Source of the DNA: Candidatus Omnitrophota bacterium
Lineage (GTDB): Bacteria; Omnitrophota; Gorgyraeia; Gygaellales; Profunditerraquicolaceae
Direction of reading: 5' to 3'
DNA length: 56,564 nucleotides
NCBI GenBank assembly: GCA_041648915.1
Contig: JBAZOC010000003.1
Span: forward strand, 1-56,564
The notes beneath the pieces were generated by a model. The model had not been told where the DNA came from. It worked only from the letters and a program-made list of their open reading frames with translations, and made no database searches. Both the position numbers and the translations under genes were made by a program. Positions 139 through 44,681 of this stretch are shown piece after piece (the stretch's first letter is position 1; every line of letters begins with the position of its first letter).

Positions 139-230
139 TGGCGGAGAGGCTGGGATTCGAACCCAGGGTCCCAGTTTCCCAGGACAACTCATTAGCAGTG
201 AGTTGCTTTCGGCCGCTCAGCCACCTCTCC
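139..230 (-). tRNA. tRNA-Ser(GCU): tRNA-Ser, anticodon GCU, class II with long variable arm, CCA encoded
   Basis: The reverse complement folds by hand into a cloverleaf. Acceptor GGAGAGG/CCTCTCC; 3-bp D stem GCT/AGC; anticodon stem ACTCA/TGAGT with loop CTGCTAA. The variable arm is 7 bp with a GAAA loop. T arm CTGGG-TTCGAAT-CCCAG; discriminator G plus CCA. Confidence 0.9.
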
Positions 231-238
231 AAAACTGA

Positions 239-700
239 TTATTTTTTAGGGCGTTTCTGCTTAAAAAATTCTTTTAGTAAAAACGCAGACTCTTTCTCCA
301 AAATCCCGCTTTTGATTTTGATCCGGTGGTTTAATCTTTTATTATTGATAATATTTACTACCGAGCCGCAGGCTCCGGTTTTAGGGTCTTTGGCGCCAAA
401 GCATATACTTTTAATCCGCGCCAACACCAGTGCGCCGGCACACATACTGCACGGCTCAATTGTAACATAGAGGGTTGCCGCATTCAACCACTTTGTATTT
501 AGGAAATTCGTAGCCGAAGTAAGAGCCAACATCTCCGCGTGGGCAGTCGGATCTTTTAAGCGCTCTACCTGGTTATGGCCGCGGGCAATGACCCTTCCGC
601 CGCTGGCGATAACCGCGCCTACAGGGACTTCATCTTCGGCCAAGGCCTTTGCCGCCTCTTTTAAGGCCTCCCGCATATAATACTCGTGCGCTTTACGCAT
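239..700 (-). CDS. tadA: tRNA-specific adenosine deaminase (A34 to I34 in tRNA-Arg ACG)
   Basis: 153 aa. CDA-fold zinc motifs HAEMLAL and PCSMCAGAL; typical TadA N-terminus (MREALKEA...EVPVGAVI). ATG at 700. Confidence 0.9.
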   Translation of the reverse strand: MRKAHEYYMREALKEAAKALAEDEVPVGAVIASGGRVIARGHNQVERLKDPTAHAEMLALTSATNFLNTKWLNAATLYVTIEPCSMCAGALVLARIKSICFGAKDPKTGACGSVVNIINNKRLNHRIKIKSGILEKESAFLLKEFFKQKRPKK

Positions 701-722
701 TAGCTACCCGATAAATACAAAT

Positions 723-796
723 TGCGCCCAGCAGGATTCGAACCTGCAACAACCAGCTCCGTAGGCTGATGCTCTATCCAGTTGAGCTATGGGCGC
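723..796 (-). tRNA. tRNA-Arg(ACG): tRNA-Arg, anticodon ACG, CCA not encoded
   Basis: Reverse complement GCGCCCA-TA-GCTC-AACTGGATA-GAGC-A-TCAGC-CTACGGA-GCTGG-TTGTT-GCAGG-TTCGAAT-CCTGC-TGGGCGC-A. All four stems pair; the anticodon loop reads C-T-ACG-G-A. Confidence 0.9.
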
Positions 797-2266: not shown

Positions 2267-2782
2267 CTATATTGCTAAATCGCTATTAACCGAATCCTGG
2301 CCACCTTCTAAAGATACAATTTTCCAAGCGCCGCCTTCTTTAATAAAAAAATAACGTAACTTTCGTAAGGTCTTAACCTGTCGAGCTCCCTCCAAGTTGA
2401 ATGCCGAAATATTATAGCTCGCCAGCATAGTCGCTTTATTATCCGTTATATTGTATTCAAGTATATTTAAGTTACTGAATGACCTATTTACTACGTTTTT
2501 AAATAAATTTTCATAATAAAGTTTTGTCCAGTCATAATCCCGAAATTTATTTTGGACTATTCCTGAAAATTCTTTTGAGGTGTAACCCATTACGCAATCT
2601 AAATCGCCTTGAGCAATACACTCCAGATAACTTTCCAATACTTTTTTAATTTCTGAGAAATCTTTCTCCTCTGTTTTCGAACTCAACGAAACTGATCCTG
2701 TTTCTTCAGCTGGCACGAGCACAACCCTATACCCTAGTTGCACTATCAAGATAAGTGCTAAAAGCAAAGGCCATTTTTTCAT
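2267..2782 (-). CDS. Secreted small protein, possibly NTF2/SnoaL-like fold
   Basis: N-terminal signal-peptide-like MKKWPLLLALILIVQL. The LECIAQGDLDCVMGY segment resembles NTF2-like domain starts. I chose the second ATG (2782) because AAGGAGG sits 6 nt upstream of it. Confidence 0.45.
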   Translation of the reverse strand: MKKWPLLLALILIVQLGYRVVLVPAEETGSVSLSSKTEEKDFSEIKKVLESYLECIAQGDLDCVMGYTSKEFSGIVQNKFRDYDWTKLYYENLFKNVVNRSFSNLNILEYNITDNKATMLASYNISAFNLEGARQVKTLRKLRYFFIKEGGAWKIVSLEGGQDSVNSDLAI

Positions 2783-2832
2783 TTTCATCCTCCTTTGTTT
2801 TAAATCCCTTGAATCTACCCCGATAATTGCGC

Positions 2833-4200
2833 CTATCCTTCCTGCTTCTGCAAATTTCCTGCCTCCTGCGAGAAATATTCGTTGATCTGCCCGTAAATCT
2901 TTCTTAATTTATCGCCGGATACCTTACAGAAACTAAAAGGATTTTCGGTGAAATGGGCTGTTTCCAATTCCTTAATCTGCGCGGTAAATGCAGGTTGATT
3001 TCTTAAATCATTATAGAGGGCCGAACCCGGGAGAGGAGAAAACAGGCTCCAGGTATATTTATCAAGTCTTAATTTTTTAGCCAAGTCAAAAGTCATCTCA
3101 ATGTCTTCTAGTGCCTCTCCCGGTATGCCAATCATAAAAAAACCCGCTACTTTCGCATGCCGCTTAACCATTTGGACTATCCCCTGGATTTTATCAACAT
3201 CTATTCCTTTAGCTAAGGTTTTCAGGCTTTTAGGCGAACCGGATTCTATCCCTAGATCCAGCTGCACAAGCCCAGCCTCCTTTTCTATAATAAGTTCCTC
3301 CTCATCTACCAGGTCAACCCGGGTATTATACTGCCAGGAGATCTTTAAGCCCCTCTTCTTAATTTCAGAACAAAAAGCAAAAACCCATTTCTTATCCAGG
3401 TTAAAAATGCTATCCTTAAACCAGATCCCTTCCAATGAATATTTTTCCTTTAAATATTCCATCTCGCTAACTACTCTTTCCGGGCTTTTTACCCTGAATC
3501 TTCTGCCCATAGTCTGATGGACAGCGCAAAAAGAACAAAAGTAAGGGCAGCCCCGCGATACAAGCATTGAAATTCCGCGTAACCCCCTTAAATTTTTATT
3601 ATATTGAACATATCTTTCTACGGGGAAAGAAGCATAATCCGCAAGAGGTAAAGAATTTAGGTCCTCAATCAAGGGCGCCATATTCCGGGTCTTTACGCTG
3701 CCATTTTTATAACAAAGCCCGGGGATATCTTTTAGCTTATCCTTGAGCCTTCCTGACAATACCGCCTCCAGGGGCATCTCTCCTTCGCCGCGCACGATAA
3801 AATCAATATTTTTATCTTCTAGGCAACCTTCCGGGTTCACCGTAGGATGAACGCCGCCTAGAATAACCTTTGCTGTTGGAAGAACCTGCTTGGTTAGCCT
3901 TGCTATACGTTGGACCGAAGGCAAGGTTGGAGTCATTGTAGTAATGCCTACAATTGAAGGCCGTTTTTCAAGCAACAATTTCTCCATCTCTTTTTCTTCC
4001 ATCATAAGGCCAACCATATCTATTAGTTTAACATCAAACTTCTTTTCCCTAAGATAGGCGCAAAGAGAACCCAACCCTAACGGAGGCTCAAAGGGATGAA
4101 TATACATATTGCCCCCTTTAATCCAATGCCCATATTCCTTACTGCGGCTGGACATTTCATCAGGAGTAAAATAAGGCGGATTTACCAGTAAGATATCCAT
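2833..4200 (-). CDS. B12-binding-domain radical SAM enzyme (class B type)
   Basis: 455 aa. N-terminal MDILLVNPP Rossmann-like domain with GGVHPT. The cluster motif SRGCPYFCSFCAV is CX3CX2C. Confidence 0.85.
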   Translation of the reverse strand: MDILLVNPPYFTPDEMSSRSKEYGHWIKGGNMYIHPFEPPLGLGSLCAYLREKKFDVKLIDMVGLMMEEKEMEKLLLEKRPSIVGITTMTPTLPSVQRIARLTKQVLPTAKVILGGVHPTVNPEGCLEDKNIDFIVRGEGEMPLEAVLSGRLKDKLKDIPGLCYKNGSVKTRNMAPLIEDLNSLPLADYASFPVERYVQYNKNLRGLRGISMLVSRGCPYFCSFCAVHQTMGRRFRVKSPERVVSEMEYLKEKYSLEGIWFKDSIFNLDKKWVFAFCSEIKKRGLKISWQYNTRVDLVDEEELIIEKEAGLVQLDLGIESGSPKSLKTLAKGIDVDKIQGIVQMVKRHAKVAGFFMIGIPGEALEDIEMTFDLAKKLRLDKYTWSLFSPLPGSALYNDLRNQPAFTAQIKELETAHFTENPFSFCKVSGDKLRKIYGQINEYFSQEAGNLQKQEG

Positions 4201-4204
4201 AGTT

Positions 4205-4888
4205 CTAACTGCTCTCGGGTTTTTTTGCTAAAATTAACCAAAAAAGATTTTTGTGCTCAGGGTAGCGCGCCGTATATTCCGTATGTTGAAGCTCCAGCTC
4301 TTCCATTCCCAATATCTCAAAACCGGCAAAATGTCCGGCTACTTCGTCTTGAGTAAAAAAGTGATAAATAATACCGCTGAGCCCATCGCAATCCAGACAG
4401 AAGGTATTGGGTTCTATTTCTTTACCTTTGTGCTTCCCTAGATGAAATAATGTATTATTGGTTGAACGGATACTGGCATAAATAATCCCTCCCGGCCGTA
4501 AAATTCTTTTTACTTCAGAGAATGATTTTTTAACTTCATTGATTTTCCCAAGATAGAGGGCCCGCCAGGCAAGAACCGCATCAAAGAAATTATCGGAATA
4601 CCCCGTCTTGCGCATATCGCCTAACCTAACCTCTGCCGATAACCCTTCTTTTCCCAAGGTATCTTTGGTGGTTTTAACGGCGGCAGGAGATATATCCAGC
4701 GCAAAAGCCTTAAAATCTTCCCTGGCCAAAAGAAGCGTGTGCCGGCCCTGCCCACAACCTAAATCCAGGACCTTATTTAAGCCGGATTTTTTGAATAAAC
4801 TCAATTTGTTAAGGACATGGCTATCCGGATCGACTAACCCGTAAGTTTTTGTAGCAATCATCCTATCCCAGCCGGTTCGAGAATTCAT
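4205..4888 (-). CDS. Class I SAM-dependent methyltransferase
   Basis: Motif I VLDLGCGQGRHT; post-I LDIS; GGIIY. The start is set at the ATG at 4888, which forms an ATGA overlap with the stop of the upstream gene. The longer ORF reaching 4942 would overlap that gene by 58 nt. Confidence 0.85.
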   Translation of the reverse strand: MNSRTGWDRMIATKTYGLVDPDSHVLNKLSLFKKSGLNKVLDLGCGQGRHTLLLAREDFKAFALDISPAAVKTTKDTLGKEGLSAEVRLGDMRKTGYSDNFFDAVLAWRALYLGKINEVKKSFSEVKRILRPGGIIYASIRSTNNTLFHLGKHKGKEIEPNTFCLDCDGLSGIIYHFFTQDEVAGHFAGFEILGMEELELQHTEYTARYPEHKNLFWLILAKKPESS

Positions 4889-6039
4889 AAATCCTTTTCC
4901 AGGGCTTCTTTTAAGGCGCAACAACAACCGCAACGGACACAACCCGCTTTATGTTCAAGGGGATTCAACGAATACATAATCATCAGGTTTTTTAGCTCTT
5001 TATATATTTTAACCAGGCTCTTGAGGCCAGGCGGAGGCAGCTGCTCCAGCGGAGAACCCATTAATGGCCGGAAAGCGGTAACGTGAGGAATACCGCCGTT
5101 CTCGCAAATTGCTTTACATCCGGCAATTGTGCCTTCCGGAGGCTCAAGCCCGGCAATAAGCCAGGAACTAACCTGATTCCTGCCAAAAACATCTACCGCT
5201 TGTTTTATCGCCTCTAAATATACTCCCACTGAATAAAGCTTTGCTTTTTTCGGCATAAGCTCTTTTCTTATTTTTTCCTCATATATTTCCATATTGAAAC
5301 TTATCGTATCCAATCCTGCCATCTTTAACTCTTTTACCCTAGGCCGGCTGATCGGGCAAATCTGGATAGAAATAGGTATGGCGCTGACTCTTCTGATAGC
5401 TTGGATCGCCTGAAGATACAGGTTAAACGTTGCTTCTTCGGAAAGCGACCCAGAGTTTATGTTTACTTCCCGAAATGATAAATATTCTTTTTCCCCATGC
5501 ATAGACCTATAAGCAGAAAGTTCGTTTTCACCCATTATCCTTTTTAATGCCCTGCTCATCTCTTCGGGTTTTTTGGTGACAAACTCGCCTCCTGTTTCTA
5601 AGGCACAAAATTTACATCCGCCCGCGCCCTGTTTATAGCTGCAAACATTAGAAAGAGTAGTAGCAATAACATCATTTCCGTGATGCTGGAAGATACTCCG
5701 GATTCCGGGATCAAAATGCCAGGAGGGTACCCCCGTGGGCGTAGCTTTAATAATGGGCTTATCTTTCTTCTTAATCCATCCTTGGCCATTGAAAACAGTA
5801 AATACATAGGGAGAATCTCTTACGAAAGGTTCGCGGACCGCTAAATTAACCGGATATACCTTGCCTTCTTGCTCAAGGGAAAAACATCTTCCTTCAGATA
5901 AAGAAGCTCTTTTCATCCCGTGCCCGGAATATCCCGGGGCAGGAATAATGCTTTTTTTTATGGCAGGGTCCAGGCCCTCGTCTAACCTTAGGCCGTGACA
6001 GAATAAATCCAGCTTTAACTCTAGCAGGTTAATGCCCAT
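4885..6039 (-). CDS. Radical-SAM-like TIM-barrel enzyme with non-canonical Cys spacing
   Basis: 384 aa. The only N-terminal Cys triad is NVCSYKQGAGGCKFCALETGG (C-X8-C-X2-C). The downstream region is biotin-synthase-like (NINSGSL..., GLDTISFNMEIY). The C-terminus is Cys-rich: CVRCGCCC. Confidence 0.6.
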   Translation of the reverse strand: MGINLLELKLDLFCHGLRLDEGLDPAIKKSIIPAPGYSGHGMKRASLSEGRCFSLEQEGKVYPVNLAVREPFVRDSPYVFTVFNGQGWIKKKDKPIIKATPTGVPSWHFDPGIRSIFQHHGNDVIATTLSNVCSYKQGAGGCKFCALETGGEFVTKKPEEMSRALKRIMGENELSAYRSMHGEKEYLSFREVNINSGSLSEEATFNLYLQAIQAIRRVSAIPISIQICPISRPRVKELKMAGLDTISFNMEIYEEKIRKELMPKKAKLYSVGVYLEAIKQAVDVFGRNQVSSWLIAGLEPPEGTIAGCKAICENGGIPHVTAFRPLMGSPLEQLPPPGLKSLVKIYKELKNLMIMYSLNPLEHKAGCVRCGCCCALKEALEKDL

Positions 6040-6045
6040 AATTTG

Positions 6046-6666
6046 TTATCCAATCCATAGACCTTCCAGCCGTGCCTGTAAACCGGCAGGGGTACGGTTA
6101 AGATAATTGACCAGGCCGCTGTGCCTCCATTGCAGCATGCACCTGCGCGGCTGAAAAAAATAACGTATTCCTATTTTAACTTCGCAACGGCTATCCTGGA
6201 TTAATCCTTCATAGGCCAACGCAACATAATATCCTAAATCCTTAAAACTTTTTTGCCGCGGAGTAAGCGGGCCGGTAACGCACCAGGCCATCACGCCGGT
6301 TTTTTTATCAACATCCATAATTATGCCGGAATGCGTCACCGGGCAACCGCAAGATACTCCTAATGGCCGGCCGATGATTATTTCTCCTGCCTTAAGGTCC
6401 ATTTCGCGGGTAAGCGTCGGATTATGCGGAATAATGATTTCCCGCGGGCCGGGTTCCTCGGGAAAATGATCCAGGACAAAATCGAATTCTCTCCCTAAGG
6501 AATCTTTCCAGGCCGCCGGGTTATTCCCAGCGGTTTCCTGCTTTATTTTTTCTCCGCTGGCTTGGGCATAAATACAATTTTTGATTAAAGCGGGGTTTTC
6601 TTTTAACTGCTCATAGAACTCAGCGCAGGTACGAAATCCACACCCTCCGCAATCTTGCATCTTCAT
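6046..6666 (-). CDS. Fe-S cluster domain protein (RnfB / corrinoid Fe-S protein N-terminal-type CX2CX4C domain)
   Basis: 206 aa. N-terminal MQDCGGCGFRTCAEF; later GVSCGCPVTH. An ATGA overlap with the upstream GTPase gene lies at 6663..6666. Confidence 0.55.
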   Translation of the reverse strand: MKMQDCGGCGFRTCAEFYEQLKENPALIKNCIYAQASGEKIKQETAGNNPAAWKDSLGREFDFVLDHFPEEPGPREIIIPHNPTLTREMDLKAGEIIIGRPLGVSCGCPVTHSGIIMDVDKKTGVMAWCVTGPLTPRQKSFKDLGYYVALAYEGLIQDSRCEVKIGIRYFFQPRRCMLQWRHSGLVNYLNRTPAGLQARLEGLWIG

Positions 6667-7364
6667 TCGCCCCTGTAGAAAAGCTGGTTATCCAAAGTCC
6701 TCACTACCCCAAAGTGCTGCTTCCAGCCGATTTCTTTTTTACCCACACAAACAGTGCAGGTCCCCACAGGAGGGTTCCCCCGCAGGTAAAGGGGGAATTT
6801 TACATCACGGGAATTATAAATCATTTTTACTATCGGCTCAACCCCTATTCCATGCAGCGCATCGGATTCAATAATCCGCATCCCCGGGCAGGCCTCCAGT
6901 ATCCTTGCCCGGAAGACTTCTCTTTCGGCTTGAGAAATTAAATCAATTTTAGTAACTACCGTAATATCCGCCAGCGAGAGCATCGGCCCGATCTTTCTCG
7001 GCAAGTTCATTCCGCTGGTGGCCTCAAGCACTACCATGCCAAACGCTCCCTCAACATAAGGAGAACACCTAAGGCACAACCCTGCCGTTTCCACCACCAG
7101 CGTTGTCGCTTTTTCCTTGCCTGCCCATTCCACCGCATCGCCTAATACCATCACGTTACAATGATCCGGGCAAAGTTCTCCGGAATAAACTTTTTTGACC
7201 GGAATGGAAAATTCCCGTACGAAGAATTCATCCTCGGTGGCGAATTGAACATCGGTTTTAACGAACGCAACGCTCTCCCCTTTATCCTTAAGCCTCTTTA
7301 TAACATGTTTTAAGATAGTAGTTTTACCGGTTGTCGGAGGGCCTGAGCAAATTACTAATTTCAT
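6663..7364 (-). CDS. G3E-family P-loop GTPase (HypB/UreG/CooC/CobW/MeaB-like metallochaperone class)
   Basis: 233 aa. Walker A SGPPTTGKTT; VETAGLCLRC at the position of the HypB ENVGNLVCP segment; G4-like TKID. Extra Cys pairs CPDHC and CTVC. Confidence 0.65.
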   Translation of the reverse strand: MKLVICSGPPTTGKTTILKHVIKRLKDKGESVAFVKTDVQFATEDEFFVREFSIPVKKVYSGELCPDHCNVMVLGDAVEWAGKEKATTLVVETAGLCLRCSPYVEGAFGMVVLEATSGMNLPRKIGPMLSLADITVVTKIDLISQAEREVFRARILEACPGMRIIESDALHGIGVEPIVKMIYNSRDVKFPLYLRGNPPVGTCTVCVGKKEIGWKQHFGVVRTLDNQLFYRGE

Positions 7365-8155
7365 TACGGCTCCTTAAGATGGGATTTAGTAATAACTTCT
7401 CCGCTACGCATATGCGACCTTAAGCGCAATAACAGATCATCAATCTTTTTAACATGCTCGACTACTTCCTTTTCTTCTCCGTTAGTAACAATCACTTTTT
7501 GCATCGAGCCGCTCTTCATAATTATCCGAAAGTCAGAAAGAAGTATAATCCGGGGGTCATGAGTAACAAAAATAAAAATTTTCTTATACTGTTTTAAAAG
7601 CTCCAGGACCTTGGTGCGGTGGATACCGGCATTTTCGATCTCGTCTAAAAGGATTATTGGAGACTCTCCGATTACTACTGCGTCTGCAATCATAAGCGCG
7701 CGCGTCTGGCCACCGGAGAGTTCGGTCATCGCGCTATGCGTATCAATAGGCTCTCCGGTTAACTGGTTTGCAAATATGAGCGTTTCGTTTACGATCGAGT
7801 TTTCTCTGCCGGAACCGCGGATAGAAGCATGTGTGGCTAAAAAATCCTCCACCCGCATATCAGAAAGAAAATTCGTATGCTGGGTAATCAAGGCGATCAG
7901 CCGGTCTGAGGGCATAGGGCAATATTCTTCGGAAGGCACTATGCCATTAAGCATAACCGTACGCTGCGAAGGCGTATTTTTATTCGCCAAGAGCTCGATA
8001 TCTTTTATCAGGGTAGTCTTGCCTGAACCGGTAGCGCCCACAATACTGACTACCTGGCCCATCTTAAATTCTACTTCCCGGACCGGCTCAGGCTGCCTAT
8101 CCTTGCCATAACCGCCAAGAATACCAATACGTTCCAATCTGGCTATCTTCTCCAT
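7364..8155 (-). CDS. ABC-type ATPase with no cognate permease in the window
   Basis: 263 aa. Walker A GATGSGKTT; Q-loop ITQH; signature LSGGQ; Walker B IILLDE; H-loop VTHD. The stop overlaps the next start as TAATG at 7362..7366. Confidence 0.85.
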   Translation of the reverse strand: MEKIARLERIGILGGYGKDRQPEPVREVEFKMGQVVSIVGATGSGKTTLIKDIELLANKNTPSQRTVMLNGIVPSEEYCPMPSDRLIALITQHTNFLSDMRVEDFLATHASIRGSGRENSIVNETLIFANQLTGEPIDTHSAMTELSGGQTRALMIADAVVIGESPIILLDEIENAGIHRTKVLELLKQYKKIFIFVTHDPRIILLSDFRIIMKSGSMQKVIVTNGEEKEVVEHVKKIDDLLLRLRSHMRSGEVITKSHLKEP

Positions 8156-8222
8156 AGCTTATTGTAATGCAATTTTGCTCTTTCTGCCACCTTATTTTCT
8201 GTTTATTAATCTTGTCTAACCA

Positions 8223-9551
8223 TTACCAGCGTAATTTTTTCCTTGCCACAAGGTAATGCTTAAAGTTATACCCTAGCCTATCCACCCTAAGCTGGTGGTA
8301 ATAAGTGATACTTTCCCTGCGCCAAAAAAATAAAATAGTCAATAACGCATTAAATGACAAATTGAATTTTTCCTTTAATTTTTTAATAACATTCTTATAA
8401 GCTGGCATTTTTAAAGGGTAGTATTGATTTATGTATAAGATATCGGCGTTAATTTTTTTGGCAAAAATGAAAGTCTTTAACTTATCCCTTAAGTTTTCGC
8501 AGGGGAAATCTAAAATAAAATAAGCCGCAGTTTTAATACCTTGTCTCTTGGTCATCAGCACTGTCTGCAGCGACTCTTTTACCGTGATCCCCTTATTAAC
8601 AATTTTTAATGTTCTATCATTCCCCGATTCAATCCCGTAAGAAATAAGCGAACACCCTGATTCTTTCATTAAGCGCAGCTTGGCTTCATTCATACTATTA
8701 ATCCTGGAATTACATTTCCAGATTATTCCTTTTATATCTTTCAGCCCCGAGCATAAATCCTGGCACCTGGAGCTATCTTCAAAATAGCCATAATCCCTGA
8801 TAAAAAAATCAGTATAACCAAACTCCTTATTTAATACCTTGATTTGTTTCAACAAATACTCTGGTGAATGGCATAATACTTTATCCGATAAAGAAGATTT
8901 GCAAAATTTACAGTTGTGCGGGCACCCCCTGGCCCCAATAATATCGATGAACTCCTTTCTTTCCCTATAAGCGCTATCCCATAGATAACCCCCGAGTTTC
9001 TCCCATCTAGGCGGCGGCAATTCATCCAAAGTCTTCATTGTATTACGGGGAGGATTTTTGAAAAATATACCTTGGGACTTATAGTAAATCCCTTTTATAT
9101 TTTTAAGGTCTACCGGCGACTTGGCCTGCGTCTTAACTATTTCCAATACTCCGTATTCCGGCTCATCAAATAAAATACAATTTATTTCAAGCTGCAAGTA
9201 CATCTCGGTATAAATATTGGAAGTTTCTCCGGAAAGCATAATAAAACTTTTTGGATTATTCTTTTTGATTTCCGTAATAATTTCTTTTATCAATCCAGGA
9301 GTTTTTAAGAAATTCTGGAAATGGTAACTTTTACCGGTTGTATTAATCACATAATAATCGGCATTTATCTCGTTTATGCGCCTTCTAAATTCATCTTTGG
9401 TTATTTTTTCATTTTCAATATCCAAATAAAAAACCATTACCCCCTTATGCTGTAAATACGACTCCAGGTAAAGCATATCGTAAGGCGGGCGGTTCACGGG
9501 ATACCTTATCCCGGAGATATAATCTAACGGGTTAATTAATAAGATAGACAT
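8223..9551 (-). CDS. B12-binding-domain-like radical SAM enzyme
   Basis: 442 aa. N-terminal MSILLINPLD domain; ARGCPHNCKFC cluster motif. The N-domain looks more diverged than in the other copies. Confidence 0.75.
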   Translation of the reverse strand: MSILLINPLDYISGIRYPVNRPPYDMLYLESYLQHKGVMVFYLDIENEKITKDEFRRRINEINADYYVINTTGKSYHFQNFLKTPGLIKEIITEIKKNNPKSFIMLSGETSNIYTEMYLQLEINCILFDEPEYGVLEIVKTQAKSPVDLKNIKGIYYKSQGIFFKNPPRNTMKTLDELPPPRWEKLGGYLWDSAYRERKEFIDIIGARGCPHNCKFCKSSLSDKVLCHSPEYLLKQIKVLNKEFGYTDFFIRDYGYFEDSSRCQDLCSGLKDIKGIIWKCNSRINSMNEAKLRLMKESGCSLISYGIESGNDRTLKIVNKGITVKESLQTVLMTKRQGIKTAAYFILDFPCENLRDKLKTFIFAKKINADILYINQYYPLKMPAYKNVIKKLKEKFNLSFNALLTILFFWRRESITYYHQLRVDRLGYNFKHYLVARKKLRW

Positions 9552-9629
9552 TTCTTGACCTACGAATTTAAGCTCCCAAAATATATTCTTGCTGATACAT
9601 AAAAAAAACTGCCGCTTGCTTAGCCCGTT

Positions 9630-10634
9630 TCATGCATAATCAAGGCAGGCTCCGTTGCATTCATTGCCTGCGAGATATATACAACTACCTGCGGTATTCA
9701 AAATACACTGCCTCCCTTGTTCCTCAAAACTTACTTTATAAAATCCGCTTAATTGAATAAGCCCCGGGAAACTTAAAATACTCTCCGCTTTGTTTAAATT
9801 TTTAAAACAACCAAAGACGGAAAGATCGGGATTAATAACTACACGGGAGGCATAGTTGCCTCGGTAGCCGACAAAACATTTTGACTTTACAAGAATAAGC
9901 CTCCTTAATTCCTGCCATTTCTTAGCGTCAAAAAAACACCTCGGCAGTGGCCTTGCCAGATAAATATAGATATTTTCTTTCAGGCATTGTTTTGCAAATC
10001 CCTCAGCAAAAAATACTAAAGAACGTATTTTTTCCGCATCTATCGGCTTCTCAAGCCCGGTGGATGAATTTATAATTGCTATCCTTATCCTTGCCCCTAA
10101 TTCCCTGGCTATCGGCCTGATCCAATTTATTGTGTCCTCATCGGTTGTAGCTATATTTACCCTTAAGATTAATTTAGTCCCATGCTGGCTTAAGAATCTA
10201 AGTTTATCCAATAAATCTGATCTCTTTTCAGCGGAGTACCTAGTCGAGCAATTAACAAAAAGGACATCAATATTCTTAGCAACAGCTTCATTAATATTCT
10301 TACCGTAAGCGCAATTAGAAGCCATATAACAGGCAAGGTTAGCCTTTTTGGATAAGCTCATAATATCCGCGAATCTGGTGTGTTGGGTTGGTTCGCCACC
10401 TACAAACATTATCTTATGGATCCTTTGCTTTTTAATCCAGCCGAGTAATTTAATAAAGTTATCAATACTCATTTCCTCCTTAAAAATACCGCCTAACCCC
10501 TGGGCATTGCAATAAAAACAGCCCATAGCGCACTTATAAGTTAAGGCCACAATTAATGGCAAAGCAGGATAATGCTCCTCTATAAGGAATAATGCTTTTC
10601 TCCGGATATTAAACAGATAGTTATGCAGAGTCAT
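9630..10634 (-). CDS. Radical SAM enzyme with Cys-rich SPASM/twitch-like C-terminal half (paralog family 1)
   Basis: 334 aa. LTYKCAMGCFYCNA; VGGEPTQH. Family-specific ARPLPRCFF and VVINPDLSVFGC. C-terminal Cys cluster CILNTAGSC...CNGAC. Confidence 0.8.
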   Translation of the reverse strand: MTLHNYLFNIRRKALFLIEEHYPALPLIVALTYKCAMGCFYCNAQGLGGIFKEEMSIDNFIKLLGWIKKQRIHKIMFVGGEPTQHTRFADIMSLSKKANLACYMASNCAYGKNINEAVAKNIDVLFVNCSTRYSAEKRSDLLDKLRFLSQHGTKLILRVNIATTDEDTINWIRPIARELGARIRIAIINSSTGLEKPIDAEKIRSLVFFAEGFAKQCLKENIYIYLARPLPRCFFDAKKWQELRRLILVKSKCFVGYRGNYASRVVINPDLSVFGCFKNLNKAESILSFPGLIQLSGFYKVSFEEQGRQCILNTAGSCIYLAGNECNGACLDYA

Positions 10635-11618
10635 ATTTATATACCAGGCATCCCCCTTGGCAGGAAAGTTCCTTATAATACCGGCAACTATAGCATTCGC
10701 CCTTTAAGGGTTTCTCCCTGAGAATATCAACTTTATCTTTAAAATATCTCCCCAGTGCATTAATATCCTTAAAATTAAATAGCGCAGGGGCTTTAGATAA
10801 AGCGGCATAGCAGACATATACCGACAGGTCGGGATTAACAACGGCCCGGGAAGTATAATTTCCTGAGCATCCCAATAGACACTTGCTTTTTGCCCCGCCA
10901 AAACTTATTAAATACCCCCATTCCTTTTCCGTAAATAGGCAGCGGGGTAATGGCCTGGAGAAATGCGCTTTTACCGAATTCAGCCTGGCGAGTCTCACAA
11001 AATCGATAATCTGATGTTTATAGGCAGCCATATCTGCAAAGGAGTAATGCTCATTCTTAAAGTCGAGTGAAGGAACAGTAAAACCAAATCTTACGGAAAC
11101 TGAATATTCCCTCGCCATATCAAAAAGCAGCGCATAATCTATGGGTTCCTTACGGAGATTATACCGCAACATGATAATCTTTTCCTCTATCCCGAGCATA
11201 TTTCCTCTTACCATATGATAGGAGCTATCAAGATTGATGTTCAGGACTAAAAAAAATTTTTATTTTTTATATATGCTTTAAGTTCCGGAGTTATCGAGAG
11301 CCCATTAGTAAGGATATGGGTATTAAACTTCAGTTTATCGCAAAGCGCTAAGATACCTTTTATATCTTTATGTATAAATGGCTCACCACCCGTGAGTATG
11401 ATCTTCCTGATATTTTGTTTTTTGAGCCACAAAAGGACCTTCCTGAAATCTTCCAATTTTATATCGCTGCCCGTTTCCCTATCCTCTCTGCTTACTGAAC
11501 AATACACGCAGCTATTATTGCAACGATAAGTTATCGCAATCCTGAATTGCGGATACCCTTCCAGCCTGTTCTTGAGCAAATAGAAAATTTTTTGGTTAAG
11601 GTACTTTTTAAGGGCCAT
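10621..11618 (-). pseudogene. Paralog family 1 radical SAM gene interrupted by a frame change at a T8 run. It may be a pseudogene, an assembly error, or a recoded gene.
   Basis: ORF 11247..11618 (123 aa) carries ITYRCNNSCVYCSV and TGGEPF. ORF 10621..11214 (197 aa) carries SRPLPRCLF, VVNPDLSVYVC and CYSC...CQGGC. Together they match the length and order of the 334-aa paralog at 9630..10634. The frames meet at A8 (+ strand 11249..11256). Confidence 0.6.
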
Positions 11619-11619
11619 C

Positions 11620-13077
11620 TTACAGGTCGCGGATTAAATATCTATGCCTTCTAGCTTCACGGCGCGTGATCACGAAAATAGCTTTTTTAAATATATTCTT
11701 TATTATATGGGCATAAAAATACAGATATAGCCTTCTCAGCAGGGTTCTTCCCGAAAAAAATCTTAAATAAATATAAAAAGGATGCAAGTAATATTTATAC
11801 AGTATCTTTTTTTTCTTCTTTAGAGCCTGCTTAACGTTAACATCATCGGAAGAATGGGGACTAAAATAGAATAATCTCTTATAGTCCTTATTTTCCGGTC
11901 CCTTGCTCAATATCTCCGGCAAAAGAGCGACATTGGGCCTATAGACTTGGATTGTGACGAAATCACATAACTGATTTATTTTTTTAAGAGACATCGATTC
12001 TTCTTCTAATTCTCCCGGGTAGCCGATAATAAATGACCCCTCCACTAAAATATTGTTTCTCCTGAGGATATGATAAGCTTTTTTAAAATTGGCATGATTA
12101 TATAGCGGGCCTTTTGTCTTACCAGGCGCCGTTAGCGCCTCGTTACCGGAAGATTCAAAACCTATTAAGGCCAGTTTCATTCCAGCGGCAGCTGATTTCT
12201 TAATCAAGTCAGGAAACTTTAATACCGTATCCATTCTGACCGGTACCTTCCAGCTTATTTTTAAGCCGCTCCTCTCTATTAATTCGCATAAAGCATAATC
12301 CTTAGCGGGTAGTATACCGAAGCTTGCGGTATAAAACCAGATTTTCTTTATATTCATGCCAGCGAGGATTTGCAATTCCTGTAAAATTCTTTGGTTTGAT
12401 TTTCTGCGGTAAGTAAAATTCCAATACCTGCTGGTAAGGCAAAAGTCACACCGGTATGGGCACCCCCTGGATAATTCCATGCTTCCTGTATAAGCATTTG
12501 AACTCCCCGGGAAAAAAGAAAAATAATTTTTAAAATTAATGAGATCAAATCTGGGAAGGGGAGTTAAATCCAGATTATCGATCATCGGCCCTAGGGCATT
12601 AACTATAACTCTACCGTTATCTTTATAGGCCAGGTTCTTCGTATTCCTATAATCTTCGCCTTGTTTTAAGTGTTTGATTAATTCCCCAAAGTAGAGCTCA
12701 CCTTCATGCAGTAATATGAAATCCGCCCCCAGCTTAAGCCATCTCTCATAAAAAAATGTCGCATGATACCCTCCCATAATAATCTTGATCCGGGGGTAAT
12801 GTTCTTTTATGAGTCTTATATTTATTTCACAATCCCTGGATGCGTAACTGGAACGTATAGAAATAACAACTATATCAACCCCTTTTAATCTATCCAGGAA
12901 TTCTTCTGGCGAAATGTTTTCTACCAGGCCATCTATTATTTTCGTTTCCTCATCGGGTATATAGGAAGCGAGCTGCGCAAAGGTAAGAGAAGGTGCGGAG
13001 AGATAAGCAATTATTAAATTGCTTGCGATACTAAAACGTTCAGTAAACCTAAGCGGGATTAAGAATAAGATCTTCAT
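11620..13077 (-). CDS. B12-binding-domain radical SAM enzyme
   Basis: 485 aa. MKILFLIPL N-domain with IIMGGYHATFF; LSRGCPYRCDFCLT. Confidence 0.8.
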   Translation of the reverse strand: MKILFLIPLRFTERFSIASNLIIAYLSAPSLTFAQLASYIPDEETKIIDGLVENISPEEFLDRLKGVDIVVISIRSSYASRDCEINIRLIKEHYPRIKIIMGGYHATFFYERWLKLGADFILLHEGELYFGELIKHLKQGEDYRNTKNLAYKDNGRVIVNALGPMIDNLDLTPLPRFDLINFKNYFSFFPGSSNAYTGSMELSRGCPYRCDFCLTSRYWNFTYRRKSNQRILQELQILAGMNIKKIWFYTASFGILPAKDYALCELIERSGLKISWKVPVRMDTVLKFPDLIKKSAAAGMKLALIGFESSGNEALTAPGKTKGPLYNHANFKKAYHILRRNNILVEGSFIIGYPGELEEESMSLKKINQLCDFVTIQVYRPNVALLPEILSKGPENKDYKRLFYFSPHSSDDVNVKQALKKKKKILYKYYLHPFYIYLRFFSGRTLLRRLYLYFYAHIIKNIFKKAIFVITRREARRHRYLIRDL

Positions 13078-13091
13078 AGGATTTCAAGATA

Positions 13092-14459
13092 CTACGCGAT
13101 TTTACCTGCTTCCCTGTAAATCTCATAGAGGCAGGTAGGCAGGCTTCTTTTATTATCCAAAGCAGTATGCATATTGCACGTTTTTATCAAGGACAAATCT
13201 AAATTATGCTTATCCGGGAACTGCCCTACCATTATGCTCAAAATATTAAAAAACATAAAATATAGGCTCTGGAAGCTTTTCGGATGTTTTAAATTATATA
13301 GAAAATTATCTAAAAAAACCTTAAGTATTTTTCTATTAAGTACTATTCCGGATAAAAACAGATACAGATCCCTGCAGAAAACTAACCGTATAATATTAGA
13401 TAATATGTTTTTTCTAAAATTAACCCTTTGCTCTAAGCTCTCTAAATAGGAATTTAATTTCTTTAAATCTACGAAAGAATCCAGAGGTAAATAACCCCTG
13501 CCGCGCCGGATCAAATAGCAGGAGACTGAACAGGGCGGCTCTTTAATCCCTTTTCTGAACTTCATTTTTCTTAATATTTCAAAAACATAAGTGCTGAACC
13601 TTGTGCAGTCGATAAAATATTCTTCGCCTATTTTTAATTCCCTGCAGACCATATTCAACATACCAGCAGAATTTAATTCTTCTTTTGACGCCTGCCTGCC
13701 GATATTCCATAAAGGGTTAAAAAAGAGTATCTTGACGTTATCGTTCTGAAGAGCAAAATCAAACAACTCTATAATTCTTCCGCTATTGATCCCCTCTACC
13801 ACGTTAACGTAAAGCATTAAACATAAAGCGTGCTTCCTTAGGTTATTTACCGCCCTGGTTTTACTCTCCAGCAGTTCTTCCCCCCTTATCTTAATATAAT
13901 CCGAGTCGCTTAGAGAGTCAAATTGAAGAATCACAACGTCTAAACCCGCCTTCTTAAGCCCCTTAACGTAATCTGGATTAACAAGTTTTTTGCCATTAGT
14001 GAACAATACTACCTTGAATCTATTCTCCTTAATTTTCTTGATAATCTCAAACAGGTCTTCCCTCAAGGTGGGCTCGCCTCCGAAGAGGTAGATAATCCCT
14101 CCTGAAAAGCTCTTTGCCCGGGCGACTATTTCTTCCGTGCTGGGCTCTTCTCCGACCTCCTCGTTAGCATTAACAAAACAATAGGGGCAATACTGGTTAC
14201 ATTTTCTGGTAAGATAGATAAGCAGCCCTTCGGGGGAGGCGTTCCTATTTCGATGCAGTTGAGCAAGAGTATGGTAAATGCTAGGATTACTCAATAAATG
14301 GAGAGATTTGAAAGTACCGTCTTTATTACAATGCTTGTTTAACCATATCTTTCCGTCTTCTTCAACTACCTCGGCATCTACAATTTCCAGGCATTGCGGG
14401 CATAAACACTTTATTTTTTTTATAAACTGGCCTTGCACGGGGAATTCCTCGCTACTCAT
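13092..14459 (-). CDS. Radical SAM enzyme with MJ0619/COG1964 (Tes / GDGT-MAS-like) architecture
   Basis: 455 aa. An N-terminal Cys knuckle CLCPQCLEIVDAEVVEEDGKIWLNKHCNKDGTF precedes LTRKCNQYCPYCF and FGGEPT. C-terminal FPDKHNLDLSLIKTCNMHTA...PTC segment. Family recognised from memory, not searched. Confidence 0.6.
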   Translation of the reverse strand: MSSEEFPVQGQFIKKIKCLCPQCLEIVDAEVVEEDGKIWLNKHCNKDGTFKSLHLLSNPSIYHTLAQLHRNRNASPEGLLIYLTRKCNQYCPYCFVNANEEVGEEPSTEEIVARAKSFSGGIIYLFGGEPTLREDLFEIIKKIKENRFKVVLFTNGKKLVNPDYVKGLKKAGLDVVILQFDSLSDSDYIKIRGEELLESKTRAVNNLRKHALCLMLYVNVVEGINSGRIIELFDFALQNDNVKILFFNPLWNIGRQASKEELNSAGMLNMVCRELKIGEEYFIDCTRFSTYVFEILRKMKFRKGIKEPPCSVSCYLIRRGRGYLPLDSFVDLKKLNSYLESLEQRVNFRKNILSNIIRLVFCRDLYLFLSGIVLNRKILKVFLDNFLYNLKHPKSFQSLYFMFFNILSIMVGQFPDKHNLDLSLIKTCNMHTALDNKRSLPTCLYEIYREAGKIA

Positions 14460-14477
14460 ATTTAAGTATAAACCGTC

Positions 14478-15281
14478 TTAGACGAAAGAAGGGATTAATA
14501 ACAAACCGTAGGCTATGCCGGCATACCTTAAGATCGACCTTATCTTTTGCGCAGAAATGATATTAAGCGCCTCTTTCTTATCAATTCCTTTTATGCATAT
14601 AAAAAAGAAAAAAATAAATAAATAAGAAACCAGAATAAACAGGACGCTCATTTCTAAAAAATTATAGATAAAAAACGTATACGCTAACAGGATAAATAAC
14701 AAACAATATATCTGCCTTAAATAAACCTTAAATTTTCTATTATTGTACCCACGGTTATCTTCTAAAAAATGAGCTATCTCGTGTAGTATCTGGTATGGAA
14801 ACATCACCAGCATAAAGAAGATAGTTAATGCGCAAACTCCCGGATTGAATTCTAATGAAATAACCAACGCTCCGAAAAGAAAAAGTAACCCGAAGGTATA
14901 ACCATTCAATAAAACGCTGAATAAATGATACTTTTTCCATAAATATCCCGGATGTACATAAAGGATATTTAACACAATAGCTACCAGGAAAAATACAGCT
15001 GCGGTCTTAACTAAATATACGCTCCAGAGAATAAATACTCCCAGCATTACCAGAGAAAGAAAAATTCTTTTCGTATCCCCCGAATCACAAAACCGGTTAT
15101 AAGAGTATCCGCCCGCTAAATATAAAGATGCCGCTAAAATACCCGCTATCATTTTAAGGGGATCAACAGTATAGCTCTTACTGGCATAGGCTAGGCCCAG
15201 ATAGACGAAGCCCAAATGATAGAACCATTCTTTAACCCTATAACACCCCAAAAATCTCTCAAGATATTCAGTTTTAATCAA
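14478..15281 (-). CDS. Polytopic membrane protein, UbiA-prenyltransferase-like. An HExxH membrane metalloenzyme is the alternative.
   Basis: 267 aa, about 8 hydrophobic segments. NRFCDSGD (N-X3-D-X2-D) at residues 62-69, after TM2. Acidic loop HEIAHFLED at residues 167-175. These positions match the two Asp-rich loops of UbiA enzymes. The start codon at 15281 is TTG, so the start is uncertain. Confidence 0.4.
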   Translation of the reverse strand: MIKTEYLERFLGCYRVKEWFYHLGFVYLGLAYASKSYTVDPLKMIAGILAASLYLAGGYSYNRFCDSGDTKRIFLSLVMLGVFILWSVYLVKTAAVFFLVAIVLNILYVHPGYLWKKYHLFSVLLNGYTFGLLFLFGALVISLEFNPGVCALTIFFMLVMFPYQILHEIAHFLEDNRGYNNRKFKVYLRQIYCLLFILLAYTFFIYNFLEMSVLFILVSYLFIFFFFICIKGIDKKEALNIISAQKIRSILRYAGIAYGLLLIPSFV

Positions 15282-15324
15282 AGAAGTATTTTTAACCCAA
15301 TTTTTATGCTATACTGCTTTCAGC

Positions 15325-15353
15325 TTGATTTATAATGCCTATTATTTTACTAT
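15325..15353 (+). promoter_or_regulatory. Candidate promoter for the + strand radical SAM gene
   Basis: TTGATT (15325..15330), 17-nt spacer, TACTAT (15348..15353), 33 nt upstream of the ATG at 15387. The AT-rich context makes chance matches likely. Confidence 0.25.
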
Positions 15354-15386
15354 AAACCTAATCGGCAGTAAACAATTACTTCAAAA

Positions 15387-16433
15387 ATGCTTCTCCTCCA
15401 TCCGCTCTTAGCGAAGATATTTCCTGGAACATTCTACGTATTTCCGGAGAAAACGCGTAGGACCGCAGGGATAGCCTTAACCTATACTTGCCAGGAAAAT
15501 TGTGGCTACTGCCTCGCTAAAAACCTACCCCCGGCCTTTCCTTCCCATATAACACTTGAAGATTTTAATAAATCCCTCCAATGGCTTATCCAGCAAAATT
15601 TTTCTTTTATCACCATCGTAGGAGGAGAACCGACTGCTCATCCGCAGTTTTTCGAAATCTGCAATATAATAAAGCTTGCTATAAAGAATACTCCGAAATT
15701 ACAAATTCTCCTAATGACCAGAAATTTTATCCTAAAACATATCTTTGATAATATCGCTGAATATAAAAATAGATTCTTCATTCAAGTGAATCTTTCTAAT
15801 GATGATTTAAATTCTACGGAAAAATTGAAAACCTTAAGCGATAGTTTTAATTATATCAGGGATAAAGGCGGGTATCTATCTGTCCGGACGGTCCTGCAAG
15901 ACGAAAAGGACAATAATTTTGAGCTGCATACACTCCGGCTTATTGATTTTTTATCTTCTCATAAATTAAACCTAAGATTTTCTTTCGATAGCTGTATACG
16001 GATTAGCGAAAAAACCATGGCTATCAGGGCAGAAAAAGCTATAAATTTTATAGAAAACTGCATCCGGAAAAGGGTTCGCGTAAAACTCGTAAGATCTATC
16101 CCCTCGTGTTTTTTCGACCGAACCCAGCTAAAAAAATACTCTGATTACCTACTCCTTAACTGCTTTAAAGGAACCCACGAACCTTTGCCGCATTTTGTTA
16201 TCAACCCGGACCTTTCATCTTTTATGTGCTGCTCTGCCCATTACCGGATTAAGGATATACTGCAATATGAGTCAATCTCCGGATTACTTGAAGGATATAA
16301 GGCCTATTTAACCAGGTATCTCTCTGAACCGGCATTCCAACGGTGTGCCAAATGCGATAAATTTAAAAAAAGGGTGTGTTTAGGAGGATGCTTGGGGCAA
16401 CGCGGAGGAATTGAAAAGATTATTGATATTTAA
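15387..16433 (+). CDS. Radical SAM enzyme, paralog family 1 (inverted orientation)
   Basis: 348 aa. LTYTCQENCGYCLA; VGGEPTAHP; RSIPSCFF; VINPDLSSFMCC; C-terminal CAKC...CLGGC. Confidence 0.8.
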   Translation: MLLLHPLLAKIFPGTFYVFPEKTRRTAGIALTYTCQENCGYCLAKNLPPAFPSHITLEDFNKSLQWLIQQNFSFITIVGGEPTAHPQFFEICNIIKLAIKNTPKLQILLMTRNFILKHIFDNIAEYKNRFFIQVNLSNDDLNSTEKLKTLSDSFNYIRDKGGYLSVRTVLQDEKDNNFELHTLRLIDFLSSHKLNLRFSFDSCIRISEKTMAIRAEKAINFIENCIRKRVRVKLVRSIPSCFFDRTQLKKYSDYLLLNCFKGTHEPLPHFVINPDLSSFMCCSAHYRIKDILQYESISGLLEGYKAYLTRYLSEPAFQRCAKCDKFKKRVCLGGCLGQRGGIEKIIDI

Positions 16434-16436
16434 TAA

Positions 16437-17561: not shown

Positions 17562-17562
17562 G

Positions 17563-18657: not shown

Positions 18658-18667
18658 CGCTTTTTCC

Positions 18668-20338: not shown

Positions 20339-20514
20339 AATTTTAAATTTTTACATTCCGAGCGTACACGTGGGAGAGGCAAATACAAAAGGCCATTTAT
20401 TAATCTTCCCATAAACGTGTTTTTTAAAGATGGCTATGGTCGCTCACTCTGCACGCTTGCTGCTCAAACTTTTAACGTTTAGCAATACCTCAAGTATGCT
20501 AATTTACCCGCTAT

Positions 20515-22065: not shown

Positions 22066-22131
22066 TACACTTTATATATTGTCCTTTAAAATTCCGTTTG
22101 ATCCTTGAGCCGGCATTACAATAGAAGCGAT

Positions 22132-22596: not shown

Positions 22597-22710
22597 AATG
22601 CCGGCTTCACGCGCTAGATTGTATTTTTCGCTACCTGCGTTAATTATATCACTGTCTATTGCAAATGCAATGCATAGCTCAACTTATAAGGAAAAATCTA
22701 CCCGAGAAGC

Positions 22711-23664: not shown

Positions 23665-23694
23665 TAGTCATCCTCTACTGCGCTTAAAACCCCG

Positions 23695-27735: not shown

Positions 27736-27736
27736 A

Positions 27737-29423: not shown

Positions 29424-29457
29424 TTATCGGCCAAATAGAAAATAACGGATCCTAAAC

Positions 29458-32120: not shown

Positions 32121-32138
32121 CTGCTCACCGCGAATAGC

Positions 32139-33762: not shown

Positions 33763-33783
33763 GAAGATATCGTTAAAAACAGG

Positions 33784-35931: not shown

Positions 35932-35949
35932 AATTAATCAATAAAAAAA

Positions 35950-37017: not shown

Positions 37018-37022
37018 AGCCC

Positions 37023-38405: not shown

Positions 38406-38414
38406 TATCCGGTC

Positions 38415-41198: not shown

Positions 41199-41207
41199 AA
41201 TTAAGCT

Positions 41208-44661: not shown

Positions 44662-44681
44662 ATAACTTCCGTTTCTGATAA

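Follow-up and report, generated by a model that had tools for sequence, protein, structure and literature searches.

Two separately conserved gene cassettes in a radical-SAM island of an Omnitrophota bacterium, one of them a candidate machine for mobilising sulfur and iron

We wanted to investigate whether six closely spaced genes of a Candidatus Omnitrophota bacterium encode one machine or several. The genes lie between positions 2833 and 8155 of a 56,564-nucleotide (nt) stretch of DNA (assembly GCA_041648915.1, contig JBAZOC010000003.1), and this whole stretch is called the window below. They code for an ATP-binding cassette (ABC) ATPase, a G3E GTPase, an iron-sulfur (Fe-S) protein, a variant radical S-adenosylmethionine (SAM) protein, a methyltransferase and a B12-binding radical-SAM protein. 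The initial annotation had suggested a dedicated machine that loads a cofactor (cobalamin or Fe-S) into B12-type radical-SAM enzymes or activates them reductively, with recurrence of the first four genes as a unit as its check, or alternatively a multi-subunit radical enzyme. We observed that the block consists of two independent cassettes, each conserved on its own, placed back to back in an Omnitrophota-like lineage, and we hold this conclusion with high confidence. The first cassette is called Module A or the trio, and the second is called Module B. The features of the block are as follows:

7364..8155, minus strand: ABC ATPase, gene 1 of Module A, 263 amino acids (aa), soluble, without a permease partner
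6663..7364, minus strand: G3E GTPase, gene 2 of Module A, 233 aa, distinct subfamily with three conserved Cys motifs
6046..6666, minus strand: COG2000-type Fe-S protein, gene 3 of Module A, 206 aa, PF04060 domain with four Cys at the N-terminus, beta domain with a Cys/His site at the C-terminus
4885..6039, minus strand: variant radical-SAM protein, gene 1 of Module B, 384 aa, CX8CX2C and C-terminal CX2CX2C
4205..4888, minus strand: class I SAM-dependent methyltransferase, gene 2 of Module B, 227 aa counted from ATG
2833..4200, minus strand: B12-binding (class B) radical-SAM protein, gene 3 of Module B, 455 aa
8156..8222, minus strand: intergenic spacer of 67 nt upstream of the ABC gene, with one weak sigma-70-like match at 8190..8161

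The distribution of the genes in other genomes was decisive. We collected approximately 100 homologues of the variant radical-SAM protein, fetched 23 loci around them (fetched loci carry L numbers) and searched these by tblastn with all six window proteins; an alignment-based genome scan with the same protein gave 18 loci. The variant radical-SAM, methyltransferase and B12 radical-SAM genes were adjacent in approximately 15 of the 23 loci, usually in this order, and the hosts included Geomonas subterranea, Nitrospirota, Thermodesulfobacteriota, Desulfobacteraceae, Omnitrophota and Thermincola. In 13 loci from other phyla a methyltransferase orthologue (34-41% identity) directly followed the variant radical-SAM gene, and orthologues of the B12 radical-SAM protein, 46-52% identical, stood beside that gene in about 15 loci. 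The ABC, G3E and Fe-S genes were found in only one of the 23 loci, L006, a close relative with the same six-gene order and 74-86% identity. The quartet that the initial annotation had suggested does not recur as a unit, as the variant radical-SAM gene travels with its methyltransferase and B12 radical-SAM partners without the trio.

The converse was observed when we started from the trio. A metagenome scan with the Fe-S protein added 80 loci, and 41 metagenomic or genomic loci had at least 3.8 kb of upstream sequence and could be counted. The ABC and G3E genes lay directly upstream of the Fe-S gene in 40 of these 41 loci, while a B12 or variant radical-SAM gene was near the trio in only four, all of them from the Omnitrophota clade of the window, and none was nearby in the remaining 37. 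The expected tracking of the trio with B12 radical-SAM genes therefore does not extend beyond the lineage of the window. Three relatives were especially informative (L027, L029 and L030). Their flanking T2SSE ATPase is 94-98% identical to that of the window and their trio 79-89% identical, and Module B is absent from all three: in L027 and L029 the trio is followed by a small SnoaL-like gene and then by the T2SSE ATPase gene, and in L030 the T2SSE ATPase gene comes directly after the trio. In the window both cassettes stand at the downstream end of a large island of radical-SAM and glycosyltransferase genes. The trio itself is conserved from Methanobacteriales and Bacteroidales to many bacterial phyla.

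Gene spacing had been the reason for treating the block as a whole. We read the strand directly and found six minus-strand genes whose junctions are TAATG, ATGA, a 6-nt gap, ATGA and a 4-nt gap, all as first described. Shine-Dalgarno-like sequences (AAGGAG, AGGGG and AAGGA) lie just 5' of the G3E, Fe-S and methyltransferase starts, respectively; the ATG start of the methyltransferase is inside a longer open reading frame (ORF) that begins with TTG, and a 44-nt spacer forms the downstream boundary of the block. The tight junctions had been taken as a sign of stoichiometric co-expression. They fit co-transcription, but they do not imply a special stoichiometric complex, because tight junctions are the norm in the window: 23 of 44 same-strand junctions are overlapping or at most 10 nt long (median 9.5 nt), and a second run of five tight junctions occurs at 35950..42791. 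Matches in promoter and terminator scans were not enriched over shuffled sequence and say little about operon boundaries; the weak match in the 67-nt spacer is a possible internal promoter. An Rfam scan of the window returned two tRNAs as its sole matches and no riboswitch.

These observations also decide on the six-subunit radical enzyme. Its support is the five consecutive tight or overlapping junctions, which are the rule in this window. Module B is present in some and absent from other near-identical relatives, and the two halves are distributed independently across phyla; therefore we regard a six-protein enzyme as excluded for practical purposes. The attractive reading of the locus thus needs two corrections: the block does not encode a single machine, and the trio is not dedicated to B12 enzymes.

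We then analyzed the proteins of the trio. All domain calls of the initial annotation were correct according to Pfam and NCBIfam. The ABC ATPase matched PF00005 (ABC_tran; E = 1.2e-15, 58.8 bits) and contains every canonical motif, as claimed: Walker A (GSGKT), Q92, LSGGQ at residues 146-150, Walker B with D171-E172, and H199, all invariant in 51 orthologues. It is 44-47% identical to the trio ATPases of Methanobacterium, Methanothermobacter and Mangrovibacterium. The claim that it lacks a permease partner also held, as no permease gene was found for it in the window or in any orthologous locus examined. In the window, as in each orthologous locus for which genes had been called, the next gene after the ABC gene was that of the G3E protein, and the 5' neighbour of the ABC gene across loci was an Rrf2, ComA, response regulator or radical-SAM gene.

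The GTPase is a G3E protein and not a member of the MinD/ParA group, since PF02492 gave 53.0 bits (cutoff 20.7) and CbiA 17.7 bits (cutoff 25.4). Its best genuine matches in the PDB were UreG (4hi0) and HypB (2hf8); matches to RecA concatemers were artefacts of repeated P-loops and were disregarded. It scored below the NCBIfam equivalog cutoffs of HypB (TIGR00073, 51.9 vs 121.2 bits), UreG (31.5 vs 204.2) and MeaB (21.7 vs 240.8). Walker A reads G8-PPTTG-K14-T15, with G13 and K14 invariant in 59 orthologues, and the Glu typical of the family is found in E92-T-A-G95 (ExxG), invariant in the same 59 orthologues and in the archaeal and Bacteroidales copies. At the NKxD position the protein has T138-K-I-D141, with Thr in place of Asn in all 59 orthologues. 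Three Cys motifs are invariant across bacteria and archaea. C65-P66-D67-H68 lies between Walker A and Walker B, at a position that is presumably comparable to the CPH motif of UreG; the second, E92-T-A-G-L-C97-x-R-C100, extends the ExxG element, and the third is C203-T-x-C206. The protein shares with HypB, UreG, CobW/COG0523 and MeaB the PF02492 domain, Walker A, the ExxG Glu, a Cys/His motif between these two elements and [NT]KxD. It differs from them in that it falls below every equivalog cutoff and has two further invariant motifs of the CxxC type (C97/C100 and C203/C206). It is constantly partnered with the ABC ATPase and the Fe-S protein, not with HypA, UreEFD or a target enzyme. We therefore assign it to a distinct G3E subfamily and predict that it is a GTPase.

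The third protein is called COG2000 here, a name taken from 10.1101/2025.02.10.637553 through matching gene context and not from a COG profile. As described initially, it opens with a CX2CX4C domain (PF04060 at residues 5-33, 27.8 bits, cutoff 23). The complete motif is CX2CX4CX16C, formed by C6, C9, C14 and C31, and these residues were invariant in 74 sequences from two clades, as were C108, H112, C176 and H182, the near-universal residues of the C-terminal domain; C106 and C129 were also invariant in the main clade. We detected more than 2162 homologues of 55-65% identity across phyla, the closest of them labelled Candidatus Omnitrophota. Among 1.84 billion clusters at 50% identity, the C-terminal domain of approximately 150 aa was represented by 145 members and no fusion of it to another known domain was found. 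No plasmid-borne copy of the COG2000 gene was found in PLSDB, and a sequence search of the PDB returned a chance match only. AlphaFold2 (AF2) modelling from 24 close homologues gave a mean predicted local distance difference test score (pLDDT) of 48, which rose to 86.3 with a predicted template modelling score of 0.79 when the methanogen/Bacteroidales clade was added. In this model the C-terminal domain (6046..6519) is predicted to be all-beta, with a pLDDT of about 90 over the domain, and it is a good target for structure determination.

We next compared the neighbourhoods of the trio across taxa. In three of three distant loci the Fe-S gene was preceded by an ABC gene (261-264 aa), a cobW gene (233 aa) and a class-V aminotransferase gene, and an Rrf2 gene was present in two of the three. 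An aminotransferase gene was found between the G3E and COG2000 genes in 28 of the 41 countable loci, and 12 trio loci did not contain it. This aminotransferase is a cysteine desulfurase of the NifS/IscS type (TIGR03402, 471 bits; IscS, 376 bits). An Rrf2 regulator, related to CymR, IscR and SufR, was present upstream of the trio in 22 of 41 loci. Two further genes recurred around trios that include the desulfurase, namely cysK (12 of 54 loci) and a gene resembling cystathionine gamma-lyase (5 of 54). Both were named after looking at representative sequences and not by a family search. Crude clustering of ORFs also produced antisense shadow families (4, 6 and 7) in GC-rich loci, which we ignored.

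Two other settings, both in cultured organisms that carry a divergent branch of the Fe-S family, contained no desulfurase gene. In Methanothermobacter and Methanobacterium the order was ComA, ABC, cobW, FeS and a gene of the F420_ligase family, and the proteins of this trio were 44-47% (ABC), 42-43% (G3E) and approximately 30% (Fe-S) identical to those of the window. Mangrovibacterium marinum has two copies of the trio (L108, 5473..7657; L112, 4388..6657), both located behind genes for a HisKA_3 kinase and a LuxR-type response regulator and among relaxase and MobC genes, with a TraG-type coupling protein in L112. This setting suggests a mobile element and a mobile, signal-regulated form of the module.

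We found nothing on either module in the literature except for a remark in a figure legend of 10.1101/2025.02.10.637553, according to which the trio is "often colocalized with CoM biosynthesis" (CoM, coenzyme M) in methanogens and its "role remains unknown". The methanogen cluster of ATPase, GTPase and COG2000 genes contains the same families in the same order as the trio of the window. The latter differs in being bacterial, in lying in a radical-SAM island and in having no CoM genes nearby. The majority form in bacteria carries the desulfurase and Rrf2 genes, a form that 10.1101/2025.02.10.637553 does not describe. The component superfamilies were already known, and the trio had drawn a single remark, in methanogens, with no interpretation. 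What the present analysis adds is the breadth of the trio in bacteria, the context of NifS-type desulfurase, Rrf2 and cysK, the invariant Cys/His architecture, the orphan fold of COG2000 and the separability of the trio from the radical-SAM triad. A bacterial context is thereby supplied for a cluster that methanogen researchers had flagged beside CoM genes.

What could the trio do? It forms a conserved unit that looks like a cofactor-maturation machine, and to this extent the earlier idea of a dedicated cofactor-loading machine stands. The cofactor is another matter. We favour sulfur or Fe-S clusters over cobalamin because the recurrent partners are a NifS/IscS-type desulfurase, Rrf2, cysK and CoM genes. 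SufC offers an example of an ABC ATPase that has no permease and drives a scaffold. Among NTPases of the SIMIBI class, Nbp35/ApbC and the nitrogenase Fe protein carry bridging clusters on Cys motifs where the subunits of the dimer meet, and G3E proteins release metal upon GTP hydrolysis. How iron is delivered in Fe-S cluster biogenesis is still unsettled. To our knowledge, no known Fe-S assembly system uses a G3E GTPase.

On this basis we propose that the trio would mobilise sulfur and a metal, most likely iron, and build Fe-S clusters or a related sulfur-containing centre, or insert them into client proteins. In most bacteria the sulfur would come from the desulfurase encoded inside the operon. 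Where that gene is missing (sulfidic anaerobes, methanogens and the window), the source could be ambient sulfide or a desulfurase encoded elsewhere. A dimer of the G3E protein would hold a metal or cluster on the CPDH, CxRC and CTxC motifs and release it on GTP hydrolysis. The Cys2His2 site of COG2000 would make this protein a scaffold or acceptor, its [4Fe-4S] domain would transfer electrons, and the ABC ATPase would drive a conformational change, as SufC does in SufBCD. The trio may serve a local demand, which should be high because the window encodes approximately 21 radical-SAM proteins and three U32-type Fe-S enzymes (about 24 in total).

Taken as a whole, the explanation that there are two cassettes and that the trio is a nucleoside triphosphate-driven machine mobilising sulfur and iron for Fe-S assembly or insertion seems to us an even call. 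A function in Fe-S or sulfur metabolism of either kind, the sulfur relay discussed below included, we place between slightly under and moderately over even. The stronger claim is that the trio, together with the NifS-type desulfurase in most bacteria, represents an unrecognised and ancient machinery of Fe-S or iron/sulfur biogenesis, distinct from ISC, SUF/SMS, NIF/MIS and CIA, with the G3E protein as a dedicated handler of iron or clusters and a scaffold of new fold; this we advance tentatively and consider unlikely in its full form. At the least, the trio is a concrete candidate for a new metal- and sulfur-trafficking machine.

Comparison with SUF and SMS (SufBC2D with SufS; SmsCB) illustrates both sides. 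In common with these systems, the trio has a soluble permease-less ABC ATPase coupled to a Cys-rich scaffold-like protein. The desulfurase is in the operon in many bacteria and absent in methanogens and sulfidic anaerobes, which parallels the difference between SUF and SMS as generally known. The upstream Rrf2-family regulator resembles control of the IscR and SufR type. However, the trio ABC ATPase is no closer to SufC than to the nucleotide-binding domains of transporters, neither the window nor the loci yielded a SufB/SufD-like gene, and the candidate scaffold COG2000 has no solved structural relative. Moreover, the G3E GTPase is an obligatory third component, and the desulfurase is of the NifS/IscS type and not of the SufS type.

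Several further observations weigh against an Fe-S assembly machine. The best solved relatives of the ABC ATPase are generic nucleotide-binding domains (EcfA2 and MetN) and not SufC, and SufC was not among its 25 best NCBIfam matches. A Foldseek search of the PDB with the COG2000 model gave nothing credible (best E = 0.036, TM score at most 0.23), so the model resembles no known scaffold. The trio of the window contains neither desulfurase nor Rrf2 gene, and the setting of the Mangrovibacterium copies is unusual for housekeeping cluster assembly. The proposed role is drawn from gene context and motif chemistry. Similarly, it is from their spacing that Modules A and B are judged to be probably co-transcribed.

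The explanation nearest to the preferred one is a sulfur relay, which we consider rather unlikely. Here the trio would pass sulfur from cysteine (through the desulfurase) or sulfide, together with reducing power, to sulfur-inserting enzymes. Its clients would be the COG1900 CoM synthase ComF/MMP16 in methanogens and, in the window, the variant radical-SAM protein, with the CX2CX2C cluster as a sacrificial sulfur donor, and the neighbouring TehB/TPMT-like methyltransferase would methylate the new thiol. The position of the trio beside CoM biosynthesis genes would suit a relay, as would its desulfurase, cysK and cystathionine gamma-lyase-like neighbours. The variant radical-SAM protein falls in the neighbourhood of BioB, ThiH, HydG and LipS2 and has an invariant second Cys motif, the best matches of the methyltransferase are of the TehB, TPMT, MduS and CpaM type, and the neighbours of Module B include an SsuA-like binding protein in Thermincola and, in Geomonas, an AsrC-like sulfite reductase. 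However, almost all Module B loci are without the trio and trios occur without Module B, so a client relation would be facultative. In addition, a G3E protein with three Cys/His motifs is more typical of metal handling than of a persulfide relay, and no carrier of the rhodanese, TusA or SufE type is present. The insertion of Ni, Co or Zn into a specific client, as by HypAB, UreDFG or COG0523, with COG2000 as metallochaperone partner or client, is less probable still. HypB and UreG are the closest characterised relatives of the GTPase, which has C-P-x-H where UreG, as is generally known, has the CPH nickel site, although its scores are far below the equivalog cutoffs of both. No hydrogenase, urease, carbon monoxide dehydrogenase or nitrile hydratase gene recurs beside the trio, whose recurrent partners are genes of sulfur metabolism. 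The figure legend of 10.1101/2025.02.10.637553 labels the trio G3E protein a Ni2+-binding GTPase, which supports nickel insertion and speaks against a handler of iron.

The original suggestion, a machine that loads cobalamin or performs ATP/GTP-driven reductive activation of B12 radical-SAM enzymes in the manner of MeaB or RACo, we now find improbable, marginally less so than nickel, cobalt or zinc insertion. PF04060 is the cluster domain of corrinoid Fe-S proteins, and the G3E family includes the cobalamin chaperone MeaB. In the clade of the window the trio usually follows radical-SAM genes (L006, L027, L031 and L039; in L030 it is preceded by glycosyltransferase homologues). A reductive activator near Module B also has a precedent, as in Nitrospirota the genes for a corrinoid protein and a bona fide RACo come before Module B. 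RACo lies upstream of Module B there, with a DUF6951 gene in between; in the window it is the trio that stands immediately upstream of Module B. Both RACo and the trio combine an Fe-S electron-transfer domain with an NTPase. There is, however, no sequence relationship between them, as RACo consists of an ASKHA ATPase with a fused 2Fe-2S ferredoxin, and the RACo of Nitrospirota belongs to the adjacent methyltransferase set of MtrH, URO-D and corrinoid protein. Furthermore, 37 of the 41 trio loci have no such radical-SAM gene nearby, the trios of methanogens and Bacteroidales adjoin ComA or a two-component system, and Module B orthologues of other phyla occur without the trio. The similarity to MeaB is marginal (18.8 bits, below cutoff), and the embedded NifS-type desulfurase and Rrf2 regulator would have no role in cobalamin handling.

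We also analyzed the proteins of Module B. The variant radical-SAM protein is a member of NF045502 ('variant_rSAM', 140.2 bits, cutoff 125). It stayed below the cutoffs of TIGR04043 (MSMEG_0568; 142.7 vs 303.7 bits) and PF04055 (25.9 vs 29.5 bits), and it has CX8CX2C instead of CX3CX2C. C133, C142 and C145, as well as C367, C370 and C373, were invariant in 27 homologues, which suggests a protein with two clusters; its distant relatives in the PDB are ThiH and HydG. The methyltransferase matched Methyltransf_25, Methyltransf_11 and Methyltransf_31 (E = 1e-16 to 1e-20), and its best NCBIfam matches (MduS, TehB, DVU_1556 and CpaM) were all below cutoffs. The B12 radical-SAM protein matched PF02310 (2.7e-24, 85.7 bits) and PF04055 (2.7e-22, 80.1 bits) and contains 'CPYFCSFC'; its domain architecture is that of class B, and cobalamin binding is predicted. 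It reached no NCBIfam equivalog cutoff, and its nearest solved structures are 9ccb, AprD4 and TokK. It is at most 36% identical to its nine B12-type paralogues in the window and is closer to its orthologues in other phyla.

The neighbours of Module B differ between hosts. In Nitrospirota (L011, 4276..13084; also L012, L020 and L018) it is preceded by genes for an MtrH-like protein, a URO-D/MtaA-like protein, a corrinoid protein, a ferredoxin, RACo and DUF6951, and the position of DUF6951 is taken by an ORF of 84-103 aa without annotation in L014 and L017, which are anammox loci. The AsrC-like sulfite reductase gene of Geomonas stands after Module B and the SsuA-like gene of Thermincola before it, and sigma-54 GAF activators flank it in four loci. 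We predict that Module B is a portable, self-contained tailoring cassette, and these contexts elsewhere possibly tie it to the chemistry of methyl transfer or of organosulfur compounds. Its expression in a heterologous host would be worthwhile.

Two named systems were considered for Module B and rejected. The Bza (benzimidazole) pathway was dismissed since BzaD was far below cutoff and no ThiC-like gene was present. The closest named relative of the variant radical-SAM protein is the MSMEG_0568 family (TIGR04043, Nit1C type), with which it has the region of the non-canonical cluster motif and its length in common. The Nit1C/MSMEG_0568 cluster was rejected because the score was below cutoff and the partner genes differ: the GNAT and AIR-synthase-like partners are absent here and a methyltransferase and B12 radical-SAM gene are present instead. 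Paralogues of the true MSMEG_0568 type were observed in some of the same genomes (L001, 19106..20790; L010, L013, L022 and L023), with a GNAT acetyltransferase as partner in L001 and an AIR-synthase-like protein, named by eye, in the other four. Thus the two radical-SAM subfamilies coexist with different partners.

Nearly the whole window is one minus-strand array, with the island at 8223..56558. The approximately 21 radical-SAM proteins comprise ten of class B architecture (eight of them with a detectable B12-binding domain), four or five of SPASM type and one with an HMPTM-type zinc ribbon; the initial count of ten B12-type enzymes was confirmed. Its glycosyltransferases number six or seven of the PMT_2 (GT-C) family and four of the GT2 family. 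The array further encodes sugar-nucleotide enzymes, and we identified a UbiA-type prenyltransferase, two NAD-dependent epimerases/dehydratases and a DegT aminotransferase; the island looks like a factory for glycan or lipid tailoring. Three genes of the Peptidase_U32 family are located at 29458..30642, 53186..54205 and 54223..55401. UbiU/UbiV, TrhP and RlhA, which belong to this family, are O2-independent Fe-S hydroxylases, and anaerobic hydroxylation may therefore be part of the chemistry of the island.

One radical-SAM gene of the island appears to be split into an ORF at 11247..11618 (123 aa, the N-terminal cluster-binding part) and an ORF at 10621..11214 (197 aa, a C-terminal part). The product of the second ORF is a paralogue of the 334-aa protein encoded next to it (9630..10634). 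Two relatives, L006 and L031, retain this split (66-68% identity), and therefore it is probably neither a sequencing error nor a recent pseudogene. The gene at 2267..2788 encodes a small protein that looks secreted; it has a hydrophobic signal at the N-terminus and matches SnoaL/NTF2-like proteins weakly. This gene follows either the trio or Module B in relatives (41-53% identity) and marks a conserved downstream boundary of the island. Finally, a tadA-like gene for a tRNA-adenosine deaminase (239..700) lies between tRNA-Ser(GCT) and tRNA-Arg(ACG) in 139..796 of the window. As tRNA-Arg(ACG) is the natural substrate of TadA, the enzyme is encoded beside the gene of its own substrate.

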